From a virus: a DNA stretch of 64,000 nucleotides. The notes under the pieces were generated by a model, which saw nothing but the letters and a program-made list of their open reading frames with translations, searched no databases and was not told where the DNA came from. Positions 1 through 35,735 of the stretch are shown piece by piece (positions within the stretch are counted from its first letter, which is position 1; the number at the start of each line of letters is the position of its first letter). The position numbers and the translations under genes were made by a program. Location of the stretch: positions 32,001 through 96,000 of IMG/VR virus record IMGVR_UViG_3300044940_000489. One strand, given 5' to 3'.

Positions 1-255
1 ATTAAGAAAAGCCAATATATTAAATGGGCTTGGCATACGGTATTTTTCAGCTCAATGGCAGCGGCTCCCGCCCAATATTAGGTCGCAAATAATGCAGATG
101 AAATGCAAGGTAACTGAGTCGGCCCTGGCAACACTTTATGGGGGGATTAGATTGGGTTATGGGTATCCTAATAAAAATGAAAAACAATAAACATCCCAAA
201 AATAAACGTATTATTTTGTTGCTAATATTATTATTTGTGTTACTATTACAGGTAT

Positions 256-849
256 ATGTTGGAAAAGGCATTTGACATAGAACTAAACGAACTTGAGCTA
301 AAATATCGCGCTGACGATATTAGCCTTACCGACTTCATCAGTCTAATGGAAACTATGGCCCCAGAGCGCAAGCTGGAAGTATCCTCGTGGGACGTATATT
401 ACGCAGGGAACAAATACGGCCTCCCATTTGACTTCATTCGCCATCGCAAGGGAGACGTGCCTGAGCTTACTATAAAAATAAGGAACAGCGAGAAGAACAA
501 CCAAGATAGGTTTGAGCTTGACCTTAAAATTCACAATAGCATGTCCAGTCGTATTGTGGCCAAATTTGCAAATATGATTGGCTTTGAGGAGAACTTTAGG
601 ATATACAAAGATTGCACTATTTACTGGCTACAAAAAGTAGATTTAGTGTATTACATTGTGTATGATAAGGACAAAAAAGAAAAGGCCCGCTTTATTGAGA
701 TAGAGGCCCGAAAAGATGTAACATTCAACAGCCCCGAAGAGGCATGGGGTCTACTTAAAGAAACTGAGGCCAAGCTTGCCGTTCTTGGGATTACGCCACA
801 ATCGCGCATGAAGAAGTCTTTGTGGGATATGTTTAAGAAGGATACATAA
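256..849 (+). CDS. CYTH-domain (triphosphate tunnel metalloenzyme / class IV adenylate cyclase-like) protein
   Basis: ExExK motif (ELELKY), DVYY, IRHRK, LTIK, RFELDL and FIEIE match the CYTH pattern; ATG at 256 preferred over TTG at 235. Confidence 0.75.
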   Translation: MLEKAFDIELNELELKYRADDISLTDFISLMETMAPERKLEVSSWDVYYAGNKYGLPFDFIRHRKGDVPELTIKIRNSEKNNQDRFELDLKIHNSMSSRIVAKFANMIGFEENFRIYKDCTIYWLQKVDLVYYIVYDKDKKEKARFIEIEARKDVTFNSPEEAWGLLKETEAKLAVLGITPQSRMKKSLWDMFKKDT

Positions 850-851
850 AA

Positions 852-1043
852 ATGATGATCGAGCTGATAGGGTACTTTTTTGCTGGGGTTGCTGCTACTA
901 TAATGTTGTCATTATTTATGCTTTTTATTATGGCAGTCCGGGCTGCGGGTGAATTGTTTAAAATCGCGGTTTATGGTGTTATTTTAGTATTTATGATAAC
1001 TACTTTGGGGCATTCTGTATTCAAAGCACTGGGGGGATTTTAA
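852..1043 (+). CDS. small membrane protein
   Basis: 63 aa with two hydrophobic segments; stop overlaps the start of the next gene. Confidence 0.6.
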   Translation: MMIELIGYFFAGVAATIMLSLFMLFIMAVRAAGELFKIAVYGVILVFMITTLGHSVFKALGGF

Positions 1044-1690
1044 TGGCGGCGACTCTTGTGGATATTGAGGGGCTAGATGGATCTGGCAAAACTACTGCGA
1101 TCAAAACCTTGTGTTCTGCATTGCTAGAGATGGGCTTTAGGGTACTTGAGACTCGTGAAGTTGGATCGCAACATGTTCCTTTTGCTTCCAAGCTGAGAGA
1201 AATAGTTTTGGACCCAGCCAATAAGCTGGATGGAACTACAATGGAGCTTTTGTTTGCGGCAATGCGCATTGAAAGCCAAAAAGAGTACCGTAGAGTTTCC
1301 GAGGATTATGATTTTATTGTGTCAGACAGGGGATACTTGTCTCACCTGGCATATACGGATCATAACGTAAACGAAGATTTTACAAAAGATTTTTATCTAA
1401 CTCTACTAAACAAGTACCTGCCTGCAAAGCCGGATCACGTTTTATATTTATCAGTAGATCCGGAAGTAGCCCTTAGGCGCCGCATGAGACGAGGAGAAGT
1501 GCCGGATGCGATTGAGATTAAGGGCGTCCAATTCCAAACGATGGTTGGGAAAAGTTTTAAAAAGTACTTACGTCAGGAAATGGGAAATATTGATGTATCA
1601 ATTATTGATGCGAATAAAACGGCGGAAGAAGTTCGCTCAATGATTTTAGAATATGCCAGCTTTTTAGCTCGCGGGAAGGCAATGTCATGA
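1043..1690 (+). CDS. tmk: thymidylate kinase
   Basis: IEGLDGSGKTT P-loop, TREVG, ELLFAAMR, SDRG..S..AY and PDHVLYL motifs. Confidence 0.92.
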   Translation: MAATLVDIEGLDGSGKTTAIKTLCSALLEMGFRVLETREVGSQHVPFASKLREIVLDPANKLDGTTMELLFAAMRIESQKEYRRVSEDYDFIVSDRGYLSHLAYTDHNVNEDFTKDFYLTLLNKYLPAKPDHVLYLSVDPEVALRRRMRRGEVPDAIEIKGVQFQTMVGKSFKKYLRQEMGNIDVSIIDANKTAEEVRSMILEYASFLARGKAMS

Positions 1691-2433
1691 TTTTAAATTT
1701 TTTAGTAAATGCGCTTAAGCTTGTTTCGCGCCCAATCTCGCTGTTTCTCGCAGTAACAGCTTTGACCATGGCTATCGCGGCGTCAATTCAAGTTGTATTA
1801 TGGATAAACCAAACATTTTTTTCTGTTAGCGATCTGCAATACCGCGACAATCTACCGGCTTTTGAGTCATCAGACGCACAAGGTCCTCAAGCGGGGCGCG
1901 AAGCGCTGATTAGGCTTACGAACTCCAAAGGTCAGCACATTTGCTCCGCTTTCGTAGTCAGCAACAGATATGCCATTACAGCTGCACATTGCTTAGACGA
2001 AGCGAGTGGGATCTTGACTAGAAAAAAGTTTAAGGTTTTTGATATCGAAAGAAAAGATACAGGAATTGAGGTAGAGGCGGTCGGTCTCGTTAATAGAATG
2101 GATATGGGTTTGGTAATGGGAGACTTCTCTGGCTTTAAAAAGCTCTCTCTTGATAGCCCCCCTAAGGGCTTTTTAGGGCGAGAAAGCTCCGTCTTTGCTG
2201 CATGCGGATTTCCTATGGGCGACAAAGAGCTATGCATACCTCAATTAGTAGGTCCAAATATTTATTTCATGGTGCAAGTTGATAGGCCAGTATACCCAGG
2301 AATGAGTGGCGGGCCCGTAATTGACTTGAAAGATGGAACTGTAGTCGGAATTATAAGCAGCACGGAAAGGGGCGGGTCATTAATGGCTCCGATTGTGTCC
2401 ATCTGGAGCGCTTTTGGAATTGAACAAAAATAA
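1687..2433 (+). CDS. membrane-anchored trypsin-like (S1) serine protease
   Basis: TAAHC (His), DMGL (Asp) and GMSGGP (Ser) triad motifs; N-terminal hydrophobic helix. Confidence 0.85.
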   Translation: MILNFLVNALKLVSRPISLFLAVTALTMAIAASIQVVLWINQTFFSVSDLQYRDNLPAFESSDAQGPQAGREALIRLTNSKGQHICSAFVVSNRYAITAAHCLDEASGILTRKKFKVFDIERKDTGIEVEAVGLVNRMDMGLVMGDFSGFKKLSLDSPPKGFLGRESSVFAACGFPMGDKELCIPQLVGPNIYFMVQVDRPVYPGMSGGPVIDLKDGTVVGIISSTERGGSLMAPIVSIWSAFGIEQK

Positions 2434-2450
2434 AAATAGGAGGAGATAAA

Positions 2451-2816
2451 ATGAAGAGAGTAAAATTTTCGACTAACACTGAGACAGGCATTAAGTATAC
2501 AAAAACGGTGGACTCATCAAGCGGTCCGGTCTATGCGGAATACAACCCATCTACAAATTTAGTTAGAGTTGTATCGGCAGCTAGCGGAAGCACAGTATTT
2601 GCTCCGGGTACTGATGTGGGCCTGGCGCTTCAGATTATTGAAGGCGGGGGACAGACTCCATCTGTTGTCGCTCGTGCGCTACTTGTTAAGGCTGGGGTTT
2701 CATTTGACCGCGAAACTAGAATTCGTAGATCAGTTGATAATTTTGGAGCAAGTGCAGTATTGCCAGGCACGGCGGCCTCACTAGTTACAGGGAGCCTGCT
2801 GGAAACCTTGGATTAA
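2451..2816 (+). CDS. hypothetical protein
   Basis: 121 aa ORF with strong AGGAGG RBS, followed by a terminator. Confidence 0.7.
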   Translation: MKRVKFSTNTETGIKYTKTVDSSSGPVYAEYNPSTNLVRVVSAASGSTVFAPGTDVGLALQIIEGGGQTPSVVARALLVKAGVSFDRETRIRRSVDNFGASAVLPGTAASLVTGSLLETLD

Positions 2817-2836
2817 AATTGTTGCTTGGTAGATTT

Positions 2837-2866
2837 AAAAGCGGCTCTCTAAGGGGTGCCGCTTTT
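2837..2866 (+). terminator. intrinsic terminator
   Basis: AAAAGCGGC-N12-GCCGCTTTT hairpin after ORF 2451-2816. Confidence 0.7.
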
Positions 2867-2882
2867 GAATTTAATGGGACAC

Positions 2883-3119
2883 ATGAAAAAACGTATTATT
2901 ATTGATTCCTTCTATCTTTCAAGCGATGAGGGGCTTGAGCGCGGCCAGCAAATTACTGGTTTACCGAAATCAGAGCTGATTGAGCTGGTTGGCATATTTG
3001 GACGCCAAAGCTCTCGAGCTGGATTAGTGCGCGGTGAAATCGTAGTGTACGATGACGGCAGTGGTGTTCTGAGGCATCACTTTAATAAGAAGACAATACT
3101 TAAGTTTAATCATGAATAG
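2883..3119 (+). CDS. hypothetical protein
   Basis: ORF in a + strand gene run; start chosen downstream of the terminator hairpin. Confidence 0.55.
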   Translation: MKKRIIIDSFYLSSDEGLERGQQITGLPKSELIELVGIFGRQSSRAGLVRGEIVVYDDGSGVLRHHFNKKTILKFNHE

Positions 3120-3282
3120 CCGAAGAAGAATAGACCACTTCAATACTTGTCTGACGATTCTTAGTGAGGGGGAGAATTTTAATCATTTAGTGCGCAACAC
3201 AAACTTCACAACAGTATCCTCAAGGGAGCACAATCTAGCGATCCCGATTGACTTTTAAACCTATGTCGGGTTAGAATTTATT

Positions 3283-3567
3283 ATAAGGTCAAAAGAAAAC
3301 CCATGACTTTAGTCGTGGGATGAATTTTGAAACAAGGTAATATATAATAAGTTTCTTCAAAGTGATGCATAAAATAGTGACAGAGAACCAAATCACTAAT
3401 TTATGCATTGAAGACAAAAGTCTTCAATATAATGAAGAATGTTGTATTAAAACAGCAACTTGGAGGAGAGGGCAGCCCTCCAAGGATAAATAAAGCCTGT
3501 GGAGCGATCAACGGTAGTTGGAGCTATGAAGCAGGAACCCCATGCCTTTAGTCGTGGGAGCTGTCAG
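3283..3567 (+). mobile_element. non-autonomous IS200/IS605-family derivative (internally deleted tnpB element, PATE/MITE-like)
   Basis: Left-end hairpin TCAAAAGAAAACCCATGACTTTAGTCGTGGGATGAATTTTGA, a tnpB remnant encoding HKIVTENQITNLCIED, and a 110-nt right end ending GGGAGCTGTCAG; left boundary approximate. Confidence 0.8.
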
Positions 3568-3587
3568 AAAGCTATACGTGATTAAAT
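3458..3587 (+). ncRNA. TnpB omega-RNA (reRNA) copy 2; scaffold 3458-3567, putative guide AAAGCTATACGTGATTAAAT
   Basis: 107/110 nt identical to the reverse complement of 4371-4480 (tnpB 3' end plus right end); 5' boundary unknown. Confidence 0.65.
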
Positions 3588-3825
3588 GGATAGAAGCAGA
3601 GGCCAACGCGTGAAGACCGGATATCTTGTTGTATATTTGGACCAAGAGTTCGACGAGGCGCTATTGGCTGGGCAAATTTACCCAACGCGACAAACCGCAA
3701 TAGATTTTCTTCAGAGGCGGGCCAACCTGCTAAACTCTATGCAGCACGCCGAGATATATTGCATTGTATTAGAGGACAAAACTGACGCTAAAATAATGCC
3801 AATTACAAAAAGGAGCCACAATTGA
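3586..3825 (+). CDS. hypothetical protein
   Basis: 79 aa ORF overlapping the next gene. Confidence 0.6.
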   Translation: MDRSRGQRVKTGYLVVYLDQEFDEALLAGQIYPTRQTAIDFLQRRANLLNSMQHAEIYCIVLEDKTDAKIMPITKRSHN

Positions 3826-4061
3826 GCTACAAGTTAATGTGCGATTGCAAAAAAGCATTTGCCGCTGCAGGAAACCTATCGGGCGACAAGTACAGAAGAA
3901 CGACTATGGTCGTAACTAAGAGCAAGGATGGCGAGACTTGCGATTATTGCGGGTACTATGTTTTTAAAGACTACGGGAATCCAAGAGAGACGATTATTAG
4001 GCCGCTAGACTTCAAAAGAAAAAAAGCCGCCATAACTGACTGGCACCGACAAGACGAATAG
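3822..4061 (+). CDS. small putative zinc-binding protein
   Basis: CDC...CDYC cysteine pairs; 4-nt overlap with the upstream ORF. Confidence 0.55.
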   Translation: MSYKLMCDCKKAFAAAGNLSGDKYRRTTMVVTKSKDGETCDYCGYYVFKDYGNPRETIIRPLDFKRKKAAITDWHRQDE

Positions 4062-4122
4062 AAGGCATAGTGAGATTAGAAATCATCAAAAACTTTTGTG
4101 ACGCATACAGCGATTAAGTATC

Positions 4123-4374
4123 ATGAATAAACGTAAGCAGATAAGGGATATCCTAAATCTCACTGAGGTACGTACTAGTTACGGAGAATCTCTTTTTGCA
4201 AGCTCCGGCTTTTCTAAAAATACAAACGCCACTAAACTTAAGAGATATGTCATATACGGTAACACGAAAGTCAGTAAATCTATTTTAGAATATATTCAAT
4301 TTGAAGTACTGCCATATCCAGTGCAGCGCTGCATAGATTTAATATATCAAACAATACAAGAGTATGACGACTGA
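4123..4374 (+). CDS. hypothetical protein, distant relative of the 36037-37091 mini-gene family
   Basis: Starts MNKRKQIRD and ends LIYQTIQEYDD; upstream DNA ATTAAGTATCATGAATAAACGTAAG resembles the array junction; the stop codon is supplied by the IS end. Confidence 0.6.
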   Translation: MNKRKQIRDILNLTEVRTSYGESLFASSGFSKNTNATKLKRYVIYGNTKVSKSILEYIQFEVLPYPVQRCIDLIYQTIQEYDD

Positions 4375-4480
4375 CAGCTCCCACGACTAAAGTCATGGGG
4401 TTCCTGCTTCATAGCTCCAACTACCGTTGATCGCTCCACAGGCTTTATTTATGCTTGGAGGGCTGACCTCTCCTCCAAGT
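4351..4480 (-). ncRNA. TnpB omega-RNA (reRNA) copy 1; putative guide TCGTCATACTCTTGTATTGT
   Basis: Overlaps the tnpB 3' end and the right-end hairpin CCCATGACTTTAGTCGTGGG, ending TGTCAG at 4371. Confidence 0.7.
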
Positions 4481-5583
4481 GTTCGCATTAATGCGAAACG
4501 TTTTATATTTTTTGCTGCTAATATATCCCTATCATGGGTAGTACCACATGACGAGCATGTCCAAAACCTGTCTTTCAGGGCTAAACTATCATTCTTAGCT
4601 CCGCAAGTACAGGTTTTTGAACTAGCATCAAACCTACCAATCTGTATGACATTTTTGCCATACCAATCGGCCTTATACTTAACCATACTGACGAATTTTG
4701 ACCAACTAACCGAGCTAATTGACTTGGCTAAACGGCTATTTTTCATCATCCCAGAGATGTTTAAATCTTCAAAGCATAAAGCGGCAATTTGGTTCTCTGT
4801 CACCAATTTATGCGATAATTTATGAAGAAAATCATCTCTCTGGTTGGTTATTTTTTCATATGTTTTTGCTAACTTAATTCTTGCTTTTTCTCTGTTTTGA
4901 GATCCTTTTTGTTTTTTTGATAATTCCTTATGCCTTTTGACAATTTTCTTTTCTGCTTTTTCTAAAAACTTAGGGTTAGGAATTTTTGTACCGTTAGATA
5001 AAACTAAGAAATCTTTAATTCCTAAATCAATACCTAAAGTATTGTTTTCATTGATTTTTTGTTTGTTAGGCAATTCTAAGCCATCTTCAACTAAAATTGA
5101 AATATAGCATTTATTAGTTTTTGATTTAGAAACTGTACAGGTTTTAATGGCGCCTTGAAACTTGCGATCTTTAGCAAACTTAACATATTTCAATTTTGGG
5201 ATGAATACTTGGTACTCTTCAAAATCTACTTTAACTCCTTGTGGAAAATGACAAGATGCCTTACTTCTTCTCTTTGCCTTAAACTTTGGGGAGTCTGAAT
5301 TTTTTCTAAAAAAGTTAATAAATGCTTTATCTAGATTTTTTAAAGATGCTTGCAAACTTTGCGAATAAACATCATTTAACCATCCAAATTCTTCTTGTTT
5401 TTTAAGTTTTGTTAATTTTTTAATTAAATCAAAACAAGATAGATTTGTTTTATCTTGTTGATATTGTTTAGTTTTTTGTTCTAGCCCCCAATTATAAATA
5501 AAACGTGCAGCCCCAAAAAACTGCTCTAGTTTTTTGGCTTGCTCTACAGTTGGGTATATTCTATATTTATAAGATCTAATCAT
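4393..5583 (-). CDS. tnpB: RNA-guided endonuclease TnpB
   Basis: N-terminal YKYRIYPT HTH, RuvC-I GIDLG, RuvC-II FEDL, zinc finger CTCG...CSSC, RuvC-III DRDILAAKNI; D-E-D triad intact. Confidence 0.95.
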   Translation of the reverse strand: MIRSYKYRIYPTVEQAKKLEQFFGAARFIYNWGLEQKTKQYQQDKTNLSCFDLIKKLTKLKKQEEFGWLNDVYSQSLQASLKNLDKAFINFFRKNSDSPKFKAKRRSKASCHFPQGVKVDFEEYQVFIPKLKYVKFAKDRKFQGAIKTCTVSKSKTNKCYISILVEDGLELPNKQKINENNTLGIDLGIKDFLVLSNGTKIPNPKFLEKAEKKIVKRHKELSKKQKGSQNREKARIKLAKTYEKITNQRDDFLHKLSHKLVTENQIAALCFEDLNISGMMKNSRLAKSISSVSWSKFVSMVKYKADWYGKNVIQIGRFDASSKTCTCGAKNDSLALKDRFWTCSSCGTTHDRDILAAKNIKRFALMRTLGGEVSPPSINKACGAINGSWSYEAGTP

Positions 5584-5645
5584 ATATATTATGCTGCACC
5601 AAACTTATTAACACCACTATTATATCATTTGGTATTTTCATAAAA

Positions 5646-5670
5646 ATTAGGTTTTTAAGCTAAGTGCTTG
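5646..5670 (-). promoter_or_regulatory. putative phage late promoter upstream of tnpB
   Basis: CAAGCAC-TTA-N7-AACCTAAT on the minus strand; matches the 8-copy motif. Confidence 0.55.
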
Positions 5671-5754
5671 TTTTTATTAAGATTTTATATGGTTATTTAT
5701 TGTACTATTTATTTTTTAGGGCCTGTAATTTGCATTAAATTTAGGTATTATTTA

Positions 5755-5793
5755 CTGACAGCTCCCATGCCTTTAGGCGTGGGAGCATGTCAG
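5755..5793. repeat. IS200/IS605 end palindrome
   Basis: CTGACAGCTCCCATGCCTTTAGGCGTGGGAGCATGTCAG, a near-perfect inverted repeat with a right-end-like TGTCAG on both strands. Confidence 0.8.
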
Positions 5794-5813
5794 TCAAAAA
5801 ATGGCATTCAATT

Positions 5814-7298
5814 CTAGGTTAGTGCCAAAGACCAACGCTTCTTGCCGCAATTCCATATTCTAAAATAGCCCTGCTCTAGCCTTAGCTGATGCTCAGTCTT
5901 TCCTGTTGTACGCTCTTGAGCCGTCTTTTTAAGAGATTGCTTGGAGTATCTATTGGGCCCCTTAATGTAGCTATAATCTGGCTTCATGTCTTCTTCCATA
6001 GTGAAGCCGCAAGCCTCGTAGACAGCGCCGTCGCTTATAGAGTTATCGGACCAAGTTATAATGGTCTTGTAGCGCATACGGATCAGACTTGGCACCGAAT
6101 GAGAGATTAATTTCTTGGCACCGCCAACAATACTTATTCCTGATTTAAAGCAGAGGCGATTCAGTACTATTTGGCCCGATCCTGATCCCCTGTGGTGTTT
6201 GCCGTAGGTGACTACGCCGACAATCTCTTCTTTATGTAATAGACCTACGGCATATTGAATTGAATTCGGGGCACCCTGAATATGATACTTGTTGAGAAAG
6301 GCTTTGGCCTCCGGAGCCACTATCTCGCGTGCATCACAATCTCTTGCGTATATTTTTTTATTTATTCCTAGCTTAGAAGACAAGTAGCCCTTTACTTGGT
6401 CTTTTCTGTCTCGCCACTGGTCTTCAAAAATGTGTATAACCTGCTTAATACCATTAGCCTTAGCTAGCTTGTTCTTATTAATGTGATAGTTTGGCCCCTT
6501 TCCCGTAGCTTCCGAATGCCAGTAAAGGCCGTTATACTCGATTCCGATATTGAGATCCGGAATATAAATATCAATTTCTAATTCGCGACCAAACTTTTTG
6601 CGATTTAGTGCATTAATGCCCAAAGAGCGTACCCATTCAAATAGCTCTACCTCACACTCTGATGTGCCAGTCATGTATCCAATGTTTGCGGCGCTAAATG
6701 CCTGGTCCACCATTCCAAGATCTGAAAGATATTTGGCTGCTCCGGAATATTTTTTATTAAACTCATTTCGAGTCTTGCACTCGGCCATCTTGTCTACACA
6801 GACATCGAACGTCCATTTTTTGTTGACAGGCTTGCGCGGAGCTTTCGGGATAATCGCTTGAACTTCAGACAGCATGCCAGCTTTTGAGGCGTACATATAC
6901 GCTTGCCTGTATGTTTGCCTAAAGGCTGTATAGCTCTCACATTGCCTAGCAATATCTAATACAGATTCTTTGGTCCACTTTTTATTGTGTGGTATTTTAG
7001 GGCTGGAGCGGAAGACCGATTTTAATTCTTTTAAATATCCGTTCGCAACAGCATGCTTGTAGGCGCCTGAGTATTTCTGTATAAAATCTGATATATTGGC
7101 GGACTCTTCTGTCTTGGATAGTACTAGGTCTTTTGTCCAATTAGTGACCGCCTGATCCATATGCTGGCACACTTGATTGAGCCACCCATTTCTATGCGCA
7201 GCGGCATAGTATGGCCGAGCACGCTTTTCAAACTCTTTGCGAAAAGAATATTTCTTGGCTTCGATTGCGATAGATTCAAGTGTATATTTTTTAGTCAC
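5814..7298 (-). CDS. Hef-like homing endonuclease (N-terminal KKWT helical repeats, Vsr/PD-(D/E)xK domain, C-terminal GNAT/Mom-like domain)
   Basis: EIDIYIP..IGIEYNGLYWHSE, IFEDQW, IYARDC, HIQG, LNRLC, WSDNS..G.VY..CGF and RIWNCG motifs; paralog of 37309-38907. Confidence 0.75.
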   Translation of the reverse strand: MTKKYTLESIAIEAKKYSFRKEFEKRARPYYAAAHRNGWLNQVCQHMDQAVTNWTKDLVLSKTEESANISDFIQKYSGAYKHAVANGYLKELKSVFRSSPKIPHNKKWTKESVLDIARQCESYTAFRQTYRQAYMYASKAGMLSEVQAIIPKAPRKPVNKKWTFDVCVDKMAECKTRNEFNKKYSGAAKYLSDLGMVDQAFSAANIGYMTGTSECEVELFEWVRSLGINALNRKKFGRELEIDIYIPDLNIGIEYNGLYWHSEATGKGPNYHINKNKLAKANGIKQVIHIFEDQWRDRKDQVKGYLSSKLGINKKIYARDCDAREIVAPEAKAFLNKYHIQGAPNSIQYAVGLLHKEEIVGVVTYGKHHRGSGSGQIVLNRLCFKSGISIVGGAKKLISHSVPSLIRMRYKTIITWSDNSISDGAVYEACGFTMEEDMKPDYSYIKGPNRYSKQSLKKTAQERTTGKTEHQLRLEQGYFRIWNCGKKRWSLALT

Positions 7299-7334
7299 AC
7301 TAATATTGTATTATATAATATTTAATTGAGCAAC

Positions 7335-7365
7335 AAAAAAGGCAGCCCAGAGGCTGCCTGTTTTT
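7335..7365 (-). terminator. intrinsic terminator after the tail tube gene
   Basis: AGGCAGCC-CAGA-GGCTGCCT stem with A/T runs on both sides. Confidence 0.8.
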
Positions 7366-7389
7366 GTGTTTATCATGTATTTAGAATAA

Positions 7390-7857
7390 TTATGTTCCGC
7401 TGTTCAGATCTGAAGCTCCAGAAGACTCGCCCTGAGATCCTGATTCATCCTCGCTTCGGAGTCCTAGGAACGAAACTTGGAAGGCGGATATTGACCGAGC
7501 GCTTACGTCAGTTGAGTAGCCTACTGGGCGCACACCAACTACAGTCATGATCTGCTTATTGGTTTGACGATCCAAGATCGACAAGCTGATATCTTCATGA
7601 TTCAACAAGTCTTGTAGCTTAGGCAAGGCGGCTGCTACATATGCCCCGTTATCTATGATACGGAATCCAGTAGCCTGGACACTGATGGCTTCTTGGCCTG
7701 CATAAGTAATCTCTGCAGGTGAGAACCGGCCAAGGATGTAGCTTGGGATTGCATCGTAGGCAACGCCCCAGCTGCAGCTTGTGAAGAGGCCCACAATTTT
7801 ACCATTAACGATTAGCTGGGCTCTTGCACCACTAAGAATTTTTTGAGTAGCACCCAT
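7390..7857 (-). CDS. tail tube protein
   Basis: 155 aa directly downstream of the sheath; SGARAQLIVNGKIVG...ILGRFSPAEI resembles myovirus tube proteins. Confidence 0.75.
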   Translation of the reverse strand: MGATQKILSGARAQLIVNGKIVGLFTSCSWGVAYDAIPSYILGRFSPAEITYAGQEAISVQATGFRIIDNGAYVAAALPKLQDLLNHEDISLSILDRQTNKQIMTVVGVRPVGYSTDVSARSISAFQVSFLGLRSEDESGSQGESSGASDLNSGT

Positions 7858-7882
7858 TGTAATGACTCCTTATCAATCTCTA

Positions 7883-10702
7883 TTACGCTGCGCTTGAAGA
7901 CTTGATGCCTTCGATGCTGAGAGTAATTGGAATAAACTTGATCGCGTTAGCGAGTACGGCCACAACTGAAACTTCTAGCACGTTACCGTTAATGTTAACA
8001 TTGATAGATTTCCAGCCGCCTGGGGCATCTTTGGTGCCTACAGTAAACTTAAGCGACAAGAACTCAGCCATTTTTGACTTAACAAATGATACGGCGACTT
8101 GGTCAGTCACGTCAGCCACTGATTCGCCAACGAAAGCATTCTTAAGGCTTTGAGCCAGGCTTAGGGCCATTAGGTCGGCTACGTATACCGCTTGAATGCT
8201 ATTGTATACGATGTTATTGTCCAGGCCGTAAGTGGTTTGGTCCGTAAGGAAAACATACCCGCCAGCTTCTTGGCGCTGGATTGGGATCAATCCTGCCAAA
8301 ATTGCATCTTCACAATCTGTTATGTTTTCATCGTCGAAGTCTCCAGCAGCCTGAATAGCCTTAACGATATTAACCGTCTTGTTGAAGATTGCTTTGTAAG
8401 CACCAGCCGCTTGCATGCCTGCAGCTTTTACTGCGCCCATCCAAGGCTGGAACTGCTCAATATCTCCTTGAGAATTGACATCCGAAACGTCTTGGAAGAA
8501 ATGAGCAATACGGAAGTTGGCCATGCTGGCTGCAGAAGCCTTGGCTACTGCAAATGTACCGCGCTTAGAAACAAAACCCATTCTATGGCGCTTTACTTTA
8601 GGAGTAGACATTGCAATACAGTGAGCCTTAACGGCTGCGTTACAGGCATCTACTGTGTAAGTAGATCCAGCTTCTGTGTCGCCGCTAGCGATGTCTTGAG
8701 CTGCGTCTCTTGAAATAAGGGGCACAACAAAATTGCAGCGGACGCCCTGAAGAGCATCGATAGCTTCTGTAAGCTGAAGCCCAGAGGTAGTGCCCTTGGC
8801 TCCGCCTGACAAGAACGCAAAGTCATTATCTTCAGGAAGGCCAGCCGTAGCGATTTCTTCATACTCAGCTAGTGCAGATGCCTTTGAAGGCGATGCGCTG
8901 GCGCCATTAAGATCCCAAAGGTCGCGCTTTACACGGCCTGGGCGTGCACCCAAATCAGAGCAGATAGTAATCGTCATTTCATCAAGAACAGACGGGCTTC
9001 TAGAAGCCTCAAGAGCGTTGGTCGCTGCTGCAGAATATCCTGGTAGAGCGTTAATTTTGGTGACCAGGTCACTGATTGAAGCAATTTCATCCAAGTTAAT
9101 GTCTTGGTTGGCACCAGCTCCGCCGGTTACAGTAGTTTGAAGGCGCTTGACTCCAGAAACTTTCTGGATTGTCATGGAGGCAGTAGTCCCGTTGTACCCA
9201 ATGCTCAGCACTACGTTTCCGCCGACATTATTGAAGGTCTCTTCCTGGGCTGTAGAGGTACGCTTAAGAACTAGCTTAATACGTCGCTCCGCAGATGAAG
9301 TAAGCAAAGCGCCAATAAATGATGCAGCGCTGTCTACTCCTAATGACTTAAATAGAGTGTTAATGTTAACTGATCCAGCGTTATCCTGAATCTCTAGAGC
9401 TTTGCCCGCACCCTTGATTTGTTTATCATAAATAGAAAGGTCTGTAGCTGCAGCGATAGGCGCTGCGGCCACTGCCACTGGGCTTCCATTGGATAGCCGC
9501 GCAGCCTTAACATAAGCAGACAATGTGGTGTTAGACACTTCTACAATAGAATACCAGCCGACGTTAGCAGATCCAGCGCCCTGGTATGGGGAGCCGGAGG
9601 GGATATACATAATATCGCCAACTCTTGGCTTCTGAGCCCAAAGCGAGCCGCCAGCAAGAGTAGCCGTAAGCTGTGAGCCAGATACGGTAACCGTTAGGTT
9701 TATACCTGTTAGGCCGGTCAATACGTTACGGTTTGTACCGGACATATTGTCGATTCGGATTGATGAATAGCCTACAATATCGTTAGCTGGTGTGCCAGAA
9801 AAAGCAGTAGGGGCTACGTTGGCAGGTGCACCAGAAGTAATTTTCTTTGCAGAAATTTCTGCCAGAGTGGCTGTGTTAGAGACAGCCGTAACCAAGTACC
9901 AGCCGACGTTTTCGTTAGAGCCGCCAGCTACTACTGAGCCAGATGGCACTCTAATGGTATCTCCCACTGCAGGAGAGTTAGCCCAAACGTCTGGGGCAGC
10001 AAGCTTAAACTTTACGTTTTGGCCAGATACTACTGCTACTTCTAACGTGTCTGAAACAGTTAGACCGGCAGTAATGTTGCGGTTAACTCCGCCAACAGCA
10101 TTCAAATTTGACAGACCCACAACCGCAGAAGCAAAAGCTGATGGGGCGGTATCTGCTGAAATGGCAAGCGTTTGCTTAGATCCGCCATTTACGCGCACAG
10201 CCATGGAAGCAGCCGATGCAGATGGCACGTAAGAGAATGTTCCAGTAGTCGGAGCAGCTTCAGCCTGTGAGCTTGTAATCTCCTGCTGAATCTCGTTTCC
10301 GAGCTTGCCGCCTCGCTTAGCGATGAAGGTACCGTGTCCGTCTGCTGTATCTCTCTCGGCCTTGGCTGAGCTGTTGGTTTTTACCAAGATGACTCGCTGA
10401 GCCGATCCCTGAATTCTTGGGGAGGCCGATGGGGCAGACAGGCCTCTAAAGGCATCTACCAATCTTCCTGAACCATATTTTGCTACTACGCGGTTGATAT
10501 CAGTAGGTGAAAATGCGTTATCTGAAAGCTTTTTCCCGTCTGTTTTATCTTGACTCCAAGAAGGCCCCTCGTCAGCCTCACCGACCAGAGCCACTACACC
10601 AGAAGTAGCTAGACCAGCGGGGTTGGTTTCAACAATAATATCAACACTGCTGTCAGGGATAATAAGCTGTGTCCCTGAAGAAGTAACGAATACTGATGCC
10701 AT
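7883..10702 (-). CDS. contractile tail sheath protein
   Basis: N-terminal GVVALVGEADEGP and YGSGRLVDA, FLSGGAKG, conserved sheath C-terminus ending IKFIPITL; large beta-rich insertion. Confidence 0.88.
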   Translation of the reverse strand: MASVFVTSSGTQLIIPDSSVDIIVETNPAGLATSGVVALVGEADEGPSWSQDKTDGKKLSDNAFSPTDINRVVAKYGSGRLVDAFRGLSAPSASPRIQGSAQRVILVKTNSSAKAERDTADGHGTFIAKRGGKLGNEIQQEITSSQAEAAPTTGTFSYVPSASAASMAVRVNGGSKQTLAISADTAPSAFASAVVGLSNLNAVGGVNRNITAGLTVSDTLEVAVVSGQNVKFKLAAPDVWANSPAVGDTIRVPSGSVVAGGSNENVGWYLVTAVSNTATLAEISAKKITSGAPANVAPTAFSGTPANDIVGYSSIRIDNMSGTNRNVLTGLTGINLTVTVSGSQLTATLAGGSLWAQKPRVGDIMYIPSGSPYQGAGSANVGWYSIVEVSNTTLSAYVKAARLSNGSPVAVAAAPIAAATDLSIYDKQIKGAGKALEIQDNAGSVNINTLFKSLGVDSAASFIGALLTSSAERRIKLVLKRTSTAQEETFNNVGGNVVLSIGYNGTTASMTIQKVSGVKRLQTTVTGGAGANQDINLDEIASISDLVTKINALPGYSAAATNALEASRSPSVLDEMTITICSDLGARPGRVKRDLWDLNGASASPSKASALAEYEEIATAGLPEDNDFAFLSGGAKGTTSGLQLTEAIDALQGVRCNFVVPLISRDAAQDIASGDTEAGSTYTVDACNAAVKAHCIAMSTPKVKRHRMGFVSKRGTFAVAKASAASMANFRIAHFFQDVSDVNSQGDIEQFQPWMGAVKAAGMQAAGAYKAIFNKTVNIVKAIQAAGDFDDENITDCEDAILAGLIPIQRQEAGGYVFLTDQTTYGLDNNIVYNSIQAVYVADLMALSLAQSLKNAFVGESVADVTDQVAVSFVKSKMAEFLSLKFTVGTKDAPGGWKSINVNINGNVLEVSVVAVLANAIKFIPITLSIEGIKSSSAA

Positions 10703-35661: not shown

Positions 35662-35695
35662 CTGACATACTACCCCGCCTAAAGGCATGGGGTTT
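35662..35695 (-). mobile_element. solitary IS200/IS605 right-end relic
   Basis: AACCCCATGCCTTTAGGCGGGGTAGTATGTCAG on the minus strand, homologous to the ends at 3567, 4371 and 5755-5793. Confidence 0.7.
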
Positions 35696-35706
35696 TTGGT
35701 TCTATC

Positions 35707-35735
35707 ATAATACCAATAAAAAAACTAGTGGTCAA
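35707..35735 (-). promoter_or_regulatory. sigma70-type promoter
   Basis: TTGACC-N17-TATTAT with an extended -10 TG, upstream of the 35649-33999 operon. Confidence 0.65.

Follow-up and report, generated by a model that had tools for sequence, protein, structure and literature searches.

Why should a phage operon carry, just upstream of its first gene, a nearly exact inverted copy of the RNA-encoding end of a transposon gene lying some 800 bp away? The question arises in a 64,000-nt stretch of viral DNA (here the window), comprising bases 32001-96000 of a 119,536-bp IMG/VR virus record (IMGVR_UViG_3300044940_000489) that is estimated to be 74% complete. We suggest that positions 3282-3567 of the window are, in all probability, a non-autonomous and protein-less deletion derivative of an IS200/IS605-family, ISDra2-like TnpB element, resembling palindrome-associated transposable elements (PATEs) and miniature inverted-repeat transposable elements (MITEs). 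Whether its omega-RNA scaffold may be used in trans by TnpB is, on the sequence evidence, an evenly balanced question. The element belongs to a family that has spread within the phage, and a diverged relative of it occurs in a second viral contig.

The phage is myovirus-like; its proteins include a thymidylate kinase, a match to tail sheath and one that matches a homing-endonuclease family. Its DNA is present in sequencing runs that carry the label hot springs metagenome or microbial mat metagenome. These community runs (X1 and X11 among them) were examined as assembled contigs. Two further contigs served for comparison: L036, a 20-kb viral contig, and L042, a related phage with 86% nucleotide identity.

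A probable deletion derivative in an operon leader

The features on which the argument rests are the following, in window coordinates.

3278-3281, plus strand: candidate target-adjacent motif (TAM) and TnpA target TTAT, which pairs in the manner of IS608 with AAAA at 3296-3299
3282-3567, plus strand: the mini element, 286 nt, a protein-less type 1 PATE-like derivative, delimited by homology to the other copies from after TTAT to CTGTCAG
3300-3319, plus strand: left-end subterminal hairpin CCCATGAC-TTTA-GTCGTGGG, from repeat and motif searches
3365-3408, plus strand: tnpB-derived remnant hairpin, with 16-nt arms (3365-3380 and 3393-3408) that are 94% complementary (15/16) and a 12-nt loop equal to tnpB
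3438-3567, plus strand: omega-RNA scaffold copy 2, with five helices and the candidate transposon-encoded motif (TEM) TCAG at 3564-3567; covariance-model match of 158.3 bits
3568-3587, plus strand: guide-equivalent 3' flank of copy 2, AAAGCTATACGTGATTAAAT, overlapping the ATG of the open reading frame (ORF) at 3586
3586-4374, plus strand: three short ORFs, of 79, 79 and 83 aa, that lie between the two inverted scaffolds and have no family match
4351-4370, minus strand: guide-equivalent 3' flank of the tnpB copy, TCGTCATACTCTTGTATTGT; homology to L042 resumes exactly at 4370
4371-4500, minus strand: omega-RNA scaffold copy 1, overlapping the tnpB 3' end; covariance-model match of 161.7 bits, fold z-score of -3.8
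4393-5583, minus strand: tnpB, 396 aa, intact, with the Pfam domains HTH_OrfB_IS605, OrfB_IS605 and Cas12f1-like_TNB

The initial annotation had described a deleted element of about 285 bp that keeps a 110-nt scaffold in inverted orientation about 800 bp from the tnpB copy, and the description holds. A repeat search returned inverted arms at 3458-3567 and 4371-4480, 110 nt long, 97% complementary and 803 nt apart, and a pairwise alignment of the mini scaffold with the tnpB 3' end on the opposite strand gave 107 identical positions out of 110. The tnpB remnant upstream was also correctly described as more diverged than the scaffold: 3367-3414 matches 4766-4813 at 83% over 48 nt, and blastn extends the match to 65 nt at 81.5%, the two corresponding peptides being HKIVTENQITNLCIED in the remnant (ORF 3362..3493) and HKLVTENQIAALCFED in tnpB (ORF 4393..5583). 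The two guides had been said to differ, and both 3' flanks read as claimed. The element is thus what it had been taken for, a deletion derivative of a TnpB element with an intact omega-RNA scaffold and a 3' flank of its own.

It holds no protein-coding gene, its sole ORF (43 aa, 3362..3493) being the tnpB remnant, and it keeps both parental ends. It lies in the leader of a three-gene operon, in the sense orientation, and the first ORF starts 19 nt past its right end. Since the mini element retains the left- and right-end hairpins together with the complete scaffold, a transcript of it would end in a guide drawn from the phage DNA alongside.

The remnant departs from tnpB at ten positions, every one of them in the two arms of the remnant hairpin and none in its 12-nt loop. 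Changes so confined, in arms that are 15/16 complementary, are unlike neutral decay. A perfect 8-bp hairpin, TTGAAGAC-AAAA-GTCTTCAA, follows directly after the remnant hairpin (region 3365-3429); the mini element of L036 keeps the remnant hairpin with a U-G change and is without the 8-bp hairpin.

As to the DNA between the inverted scaffolds, an 861-nt community contig spans 3539-4399 with both of its termini within the repeats, so that either orientation of 3568-4370 fits it. In the 83-aa ORF (4123-4374, plus strand), the stop codon and the third base of the closing Asp codon are supplied by the transposon right end (CTGAcag); the L042 homologue instead terminates within an ATGA that it shares with the following gene.

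The scaffold keeps a covarying omega-RNA fold

The same helices appear in all six copies folded singly. Across eight copies of the family, 96.3% of the 271 cells pair and both sides change in 7 of the 34 base pairs, with a covariation score of 0.221 against 0.128 in shuffled alignments, a value that none of 500 shuffles reached. A covariance model built from these eight copies finds exactly two strong matches in the window, the two full scaffolds, and it also matches the 3' ends of tnpB homologues in unrelated contigs whose proteins are 42-54% identical. When seven of these distant 3' ends are included, the resulting alignment of 14 sequences pairs in 95.1% of cells, double changes affect 31 of the 34 pairs, and the covariation score rises to 0.559 against 0.183 in shuffles (0/500) and at most 0.096 in slid controls, figures to be read with the knowledge that this alignment was fitted to the covariance model and leans towards the structure. 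The fold is strand-specific, because it includes several U-G pairs that never vary. The 3' flank, the guide-equivalent position, differs in every copy.

A further helix lies upstream of the 110-nt block and is formed by GTTGT/ACAGC in type 1 mini elements as against TTCGC/GCGAA elsewhere; because the helix is kept by different sequence, the mini element retains some 130 nt of scaffold. The loop of helix 2 and the GCUGUC 3' tail could form a pseudoknot of 6 pairs, with 93.8% of cells paired and no covariation, a candidate that was not significant in the distant relatives. Rfam gave no family at its threshold anywhere in the window; at E <= 1, the only Rfam hits in 3200-5900 were to RAGATH-18 and to a small nucleolar RNA model, none of them above threshold. 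The RAGATH-18 hit (4401-4442, 24.6 bits against a cut-off of 44.9, E = 0.14) was treated as chance.

A dispersed family with shuffled scaffolds

The view of one TnpB served by two omega-RNA loci stands within the window, where the covariance model finds two full scaffolds, and fails for the record as a whole. It is an artefact of the window, because the record holds six scaffolds and a second tnpB. The full 110-nt scaffolds lie at genome positions 20653, 30222, 35458, 36371, 112033 and 113505, and are 94-100% identical to the scaffold of the mini element. The second tnpB (genome 119221-119536), 90.5% identical over 316 nt and with a canonical left end, is cut by the end of the contig. Three solo hairpins, at genome 30.06k, 37.76k (window 5755-5793) and 67.66k (window 35662-35712), bring the family in the record to two tnpB genes, five mini elements of two deletion types and three solo hairpins; within the window, the hairpin motif occurs 5 times, where shuffled sequence predicts 0.00. 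The small multi-guide system that had been proposed is therefore not a matter of two guides: the mini element is one among a dispersed set that counts at least six scaffolds and two tnpB genes.

The type 1 mini elements (20k, 35k and 113k) consist of the left end, a 65-nt internal remnant of tnpB and the last 110 nt, and type 2 (30k and 112k) combines the left end with the tnpB leader and the final 180 nt. The same deletion junctions recur at unrelated loci, so that the forms must have moved as units. Contig L036 carries one full copy and a type-1-like mini element that is 72-74% identical overall and, over the scaffold, 88-90%. Because the flanking genes of L036 match another part of the phage, at about 27-47% amino acid identity, the site there has no homologue among those of the record.

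Scaffold sequence does not follow element type. The 35k type 1 and 30k type 2 scaffolds show no differences, the 36k full copy and the 113k type 1 element differ at one position, as do the 112k type 2 and 20k type 1 elements, and the three groups so formed differ from one another at 3-7. In L036 the scaffold of the mini element is a mosaic, with helices 3-4 like the resident full copy and helix 2 like other lineages. This pattern indicates recombination or gene conversion among copies. The initial annotation had argued from preferential conservation of the RNA part relative to the tnpB copy, and this comparison is confounded, the mini scaffold being 100% identical to that of the 30222 mini element of the other type. 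Neutral duplication or gene conversion had been named beforehand as the process that would speak against that argument, and its signature is what we find: scaffold variants that pair across element types.

In run X1 the summed contig depth over parts of the element is 220-1,667 in most bins, against 66-83 on the phage flanks. The solo forms within the window and one tandem arrangement outside it complete the inventory.

35662-35712, minus strand: solo fusion of left-end and right-end hairpins, downstream of TTGACC-17-TATTAT
5755-5793, no strand assigned: palindrome whose two strands each carry a TGTCAG tail of right-end type, from the sequence, the repeat search and the family comparison

At genome 30046-30536 a type 2 mini element is followed by a 117-nt spacer, which is also found before tnpB, and then by a 50-nt solo fusion of left and right ends.

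Element ends, candidate motifs and promoter context

Homology among the copies starts straight after TTAT and stops at CTGTCAG. At the left end, TTAT lies 18 nt 5' of the hairpin and AAAA just before it; at the right end, TCAG closes 9 nt 3' of the hairpin and GAAC stands just before it. TTAT or TTAC precedes every left end listed, TTAC occurring together with AAAG in the L036 full copy. The right border of the tnpB copy is confirmed by L042, in which homology is lost precisely between window positions 4370 and 4371. TTAT is the TAM of ISDge10.

This end geometry, with a target tetranucleotide some 18-19 nt 5' of the left hairpin and an end motif 9-10 nt 3' of the right one, is that of IS608 of Helicobacter pylori, in which, in the passages of PMC5934647 that describe it, the left cleavage site (CL) TTAC is paired with the left guide (GL) AAAG and the right cleavage site (CR) TCAA with the right guide (GR) GAAT, with a long spacer at the left end and a short one at the right. 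The corresponding pairs here are TTAT/AAAA and TCAG/GAAC, and they differ from those of IS608 by a joint change of the fourth position in both. Because the ends thus obey the IS608 logic, TTAT is read as the candidate TAM and TCAG as the candidate TEM. For ISGst2, the corresponding part of PMC10055086 gives TTTAT as TAM and TTCAC as TEM. The subterminal hairpins, the TAM and TEM and the internal DNA guides all lie on the tnpB-sense strand; the exact border is provisional, since an insertion-free contig from run X11 (below) does not fit the predicted donor joint.

We rejected TTGAC as TAM: with a -10-like hexamer 17-18 nt downstream of it, a -35 box is the better reading. Activity of TnpA on the strand antisense to tnpB would explain the joint of the X11 contig exactly; we rejected it as the main reading because it would reverse the asymmetry of IS608 and the pairing of guides with cleavage sites.

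3248-3277, plus strand: promoter-like site TTGACT-18-TAGAAT, with 10/12 consensus matches, a consensus match only

Four of the eight left-end junctions lie 0-4 nt past a promoter-like -10 box, all in the sense orientation, against a background of 62 among 2,408 TTAY sites genome-wide; the binomial probability of about 3e-5 is to be read knowing that the left-end pattern was chosen after seeing the copies and missed the 67k solo hairpin. The promoters in this comparison are likewise consensus matches, as distinct from mapped sites. Given the promoter-like site before the mini element, read-through would yield a leader RNA with the scaffold followed by the guide.

The tnpB gene and its locus

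The protein that would serve such RNAs has the domain architecture of a TnpB, with HTH, RuvC-type OrfB_IS605 and Zn-ribbon TNB domains. Its Pfam scores are 3.3e-19 for PF12323, 1.4e-28 for PF01385 and 2.9e-21 for PF07282, the solved structures of ISDra2 TnpB are matched at E = 6e-66, and its motifs GIDLG184, CFEDL270, HDRD350, CTCG325 and CSSCG343, both CxxC pairs included, align to those of a TnpB structure entry. Over 388 codons, the ratio of nonsynonymous to synonymous substitution rates (dN/dS) between the window tnpB and the 85.5%-identical L036 copy is 0.14, and on this measure TnpB is under purifying selection. We rejected a TldR, that is, a nuclease-dead repressor derived from TnpB, as the acidic RuvC motifs are intact, and an IStron, as Rfam gave no group I intron match at the gathering threshold in the window, nor at E <= 1 in 3200-5900. 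The L036 TnpB (5468-6646, minus strand) ends eight residues before that of the window, and the substitutions that truncate it are compensatory changes of omega-RNA helix 4.

5584-5643, minus strand: tnpB 5' leader, with a left-end start TTAT|GA (5640-5643), in which the left-end hairpin is gone and about 45-48 nt are deleted, as judged against the 119k and L036 copies
5638-5760, minus strand: 123-nt duplicated stretch upstream of tnpB, 95.1% identical to genome 30106-30227

Community contigs join a left-end hairpin to the leader (3332 to 5629), with a summed depth of 188 in X1. In place of the 1,425-bp tnpB composite (window 4371-5795), L042 has 1,294 bp (2776-4069) with five small ORFs, of 127, 69, 57, 70 and 96 aa, a module swap as opposed to a simple insertion. 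Next to the composite lies a 494-aa protein (5814-7298, minus strand) that matches phrog_3339, "homing endonuclease", at E = 1.7e-84, gives a weak Pfam match to Mom and is conserved in L042.

Weighing the explanations

We posit the following sequence of events. A Y1 TnpA supplied in trans would insert elements 3' of TTAT, often where this motif forms the tail of a promoter -10 box, and the promoter would then read through the element in the omega-RNA sense. TnpB from the full copies would load the RNAs of the mini elements and cut empty alleles flanked by TTAT in co-infecting genomes, and recombination repair would copy the element back, amounting to homing or retention. The scaffold copies would meanwhile exchange sequence by recombination and so stay near-identical.

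Several observations weigh against this account, beginning with the insertion-free alleles. The initial annotation had proposed that related phages lacking the insertions could be cut, and the two such relatives found, L042 and the X11 contig, both lack the predicted combination of TAM and protospacer. L042 has a protospacer for the first guide, with mismatches at positions 7 and 8, which is preceded by CATTCC and not by TTAT. The X11 contig joins 3277 to 3564, skipping exactly 286 nt and keeping TCAG without TTAT; it is a single contig of depth 3.1 with 47 nt on its shorter side, and is annotated "between: not known". Its joint is shifted by 4 nt from the canonical donor joint ...TAGAATTTAT|AAAGC, and the allele could be a chance or aberrant deletion, an uncuttable survivor without TAM or a product of other-strand activity, the last of these being disfavoured because the end geometry argues against it. 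Current mobility is also in doubt. No match to Y1 TnpA (PF01797) was found at E <= 1 in the 119.5-kb, 74%-complete record; the window copy of tnpB, having lost its left-end hairpin, is not a normal transposition substrate; and no host can be named, because the TnpB relatives from the genome scan are only 30-54% identical. The identity of 107/110 is itself weak evidence of special selection, given the shuffling of scaffold variants among element types, and the covariation in the larger alignment carries the leaning towards the structure described above.

The searches for relatives define the setting of these points. Window 1-9000 matched none of the phage records by megablast, and exact scaffold patterns had no matches in the viral and genome contig collections. 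The large protein search gave 13 TnpB relatives at 83-91% identity; the metagenome scan for TnpB gave solely relatives of at most 53% identity, and the genome scan four loci, in an Ekhidna metagenome-assembled genome (MAG) and two Flavobacterium contigs at 45-54% and in a Poribacteria MAG at 30%. Scans with the flanking proteins returned nothing, or distant phages in which downstream genes are not conserved. Sequences resembling tnpB occur in 422 of 50,697 phage records.

These points could be taken to mean that the mini elements are inert debris, decaying relics without RNA function whose scaffolds are alike through recent duplication and gene conversion. The sharing of scaffold variants between element types, with 0-1 differences within pairs and 3-7 between, is what such a process would leave, and an immobilised resident tnpB in a record without a TnpA match is in keeping with it. 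Decay does not, however, explain why compensatory changes keep every helix, including an A-U pair of helix 2 turned into U-A and, in helix 4, two double changes common to the L036 copies, with covariation extending to nearly all pairs (31/34) among distant relatives. Nor does it explain why the upstream helix is kept by different sequences (TTCGC/GCGAA against GTTGT/ACAGC), or why the type 1 lineage occurs in two viral contigs whose copies are 72-74% identical overall and yet 88-90% identical in the scaffold. We consider debris unlikely on these grounds. A further explanation would make the element mainly a cis-regulatory cassette, a structured 5' leader of the operon at 3586-4374 that provides signals for stability, attenuation or processing, with an incidental TnpB ancestry. 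The element would in this respect resemble the mobile promoter/stem-loop cassettes of T4-type phages, it sits between a promoter-like site and the first ORF, and it has near-perfect added hairpins (3365-3408 and 3410-3429) that are absent from tnpB. But the scaffold is also conserved at tnpB 3' ends that have no downstream operon, its covariation fits the omega-RNA fold and not a terminator, and no T-tract follows the added hairpins, all of which makes a mainly regulatory role very improbable.

Another rival is domestication, the immobilised tnpB with its own promoter and the guide cassettes embedded in promoters together forming a multi-site nuclease against co-infecting relatives. The window tnpB indeed lacks the left-end hairpin and is preceded by the 123-nt duplicate of a phage intergenic region, TnpB is under purifying selection, and the mini elements lie in sense behind promoter-like sites. 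Against such a weapon stands behaviour more typical of a selfish transposon, with multiple deletion forms, solo hairpins, a canonical 119k copy and a high depth in the community, and the relatives examined are without TAM and protospacer; we regard it as decidedly unlikely. A related proposal, also unlikely in our estimate, is that the myovirus captured TnpB as a fixed, promoter-driven nuclease programmed by guide cassettes in operon leaders, which home into alleles bearing TTAT or exclude them. The left-end hairpin would then have been deleted and a phage intergenic cassette duplicated before the gene, and the alleles without TAM in the community, where TCAG stands for TTAT, would have survived through resistance or be traces left behind by abortive homing. 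We therefore return to the deletion derivative of a TnpB element as the reading that we favour, with use of its scaffold in trans as the part of it that is still finely poised.

Relation to known systems and implications

The closest parallel to the mini element is provided by the PATE-like elements of Geobacillus stearothermophilus, which are likewise protein-less, keep parental ends and an omega-RNA scaffold, take their guide from their own flank and would depend on TnpB and TnpA supplied in trans. The idea of PATEs with omega-RNAs that rely on TnpB made elsewhere has already appeared in print, in the preprint by Meers et al. (2023; PMC10055086). In contrast to those, the elements reported here reside in a hot-spring myovirus, lie in sense behind promoter-like sites and have shuffled scaffolds, in a record without TnpA. 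The element adds a phage example to a published concept, and we make no claim that the phage case is itself unpublished.

Among proteins of known structure, ISDra2 TnpB (PDB 8BF8, 8EXA and 8H1J) is the closest solved natural relative, and in both systems the scaffold overlaps the tnpB 3' end. The core of 110-130 nt found here is close in size to the functional ISDra2 scaffold, given as 116 nt in the portion of PMC10097598 concerned, where RNA upstream of it is said to be dispensable. As in the ISDra2 pseudoknot, the 3' tail here may pair with the loop of an upstream helix, a likeness that was not significant. ISDra2 differs in its TAM, TTGAT as against the candidate TTAT, and the phage record, as opposed to both ISDra2 and IS608, has no transposase gene.

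This analysis yields a set of natural guides, TTAT and TCAG as candidate TAM and TEM, and a covariance model for the scaffold. If TnpB does serve the mini elements in trans, the phage would possess one compact RNA-guided nuclease together with several separately encoded guides, each expressed from a promoter of the genome that hosts the element, which would amount to a simple forerunner of guide systems arranged in arrays. It would also constitute a homing drive operating between co-infecting phages.

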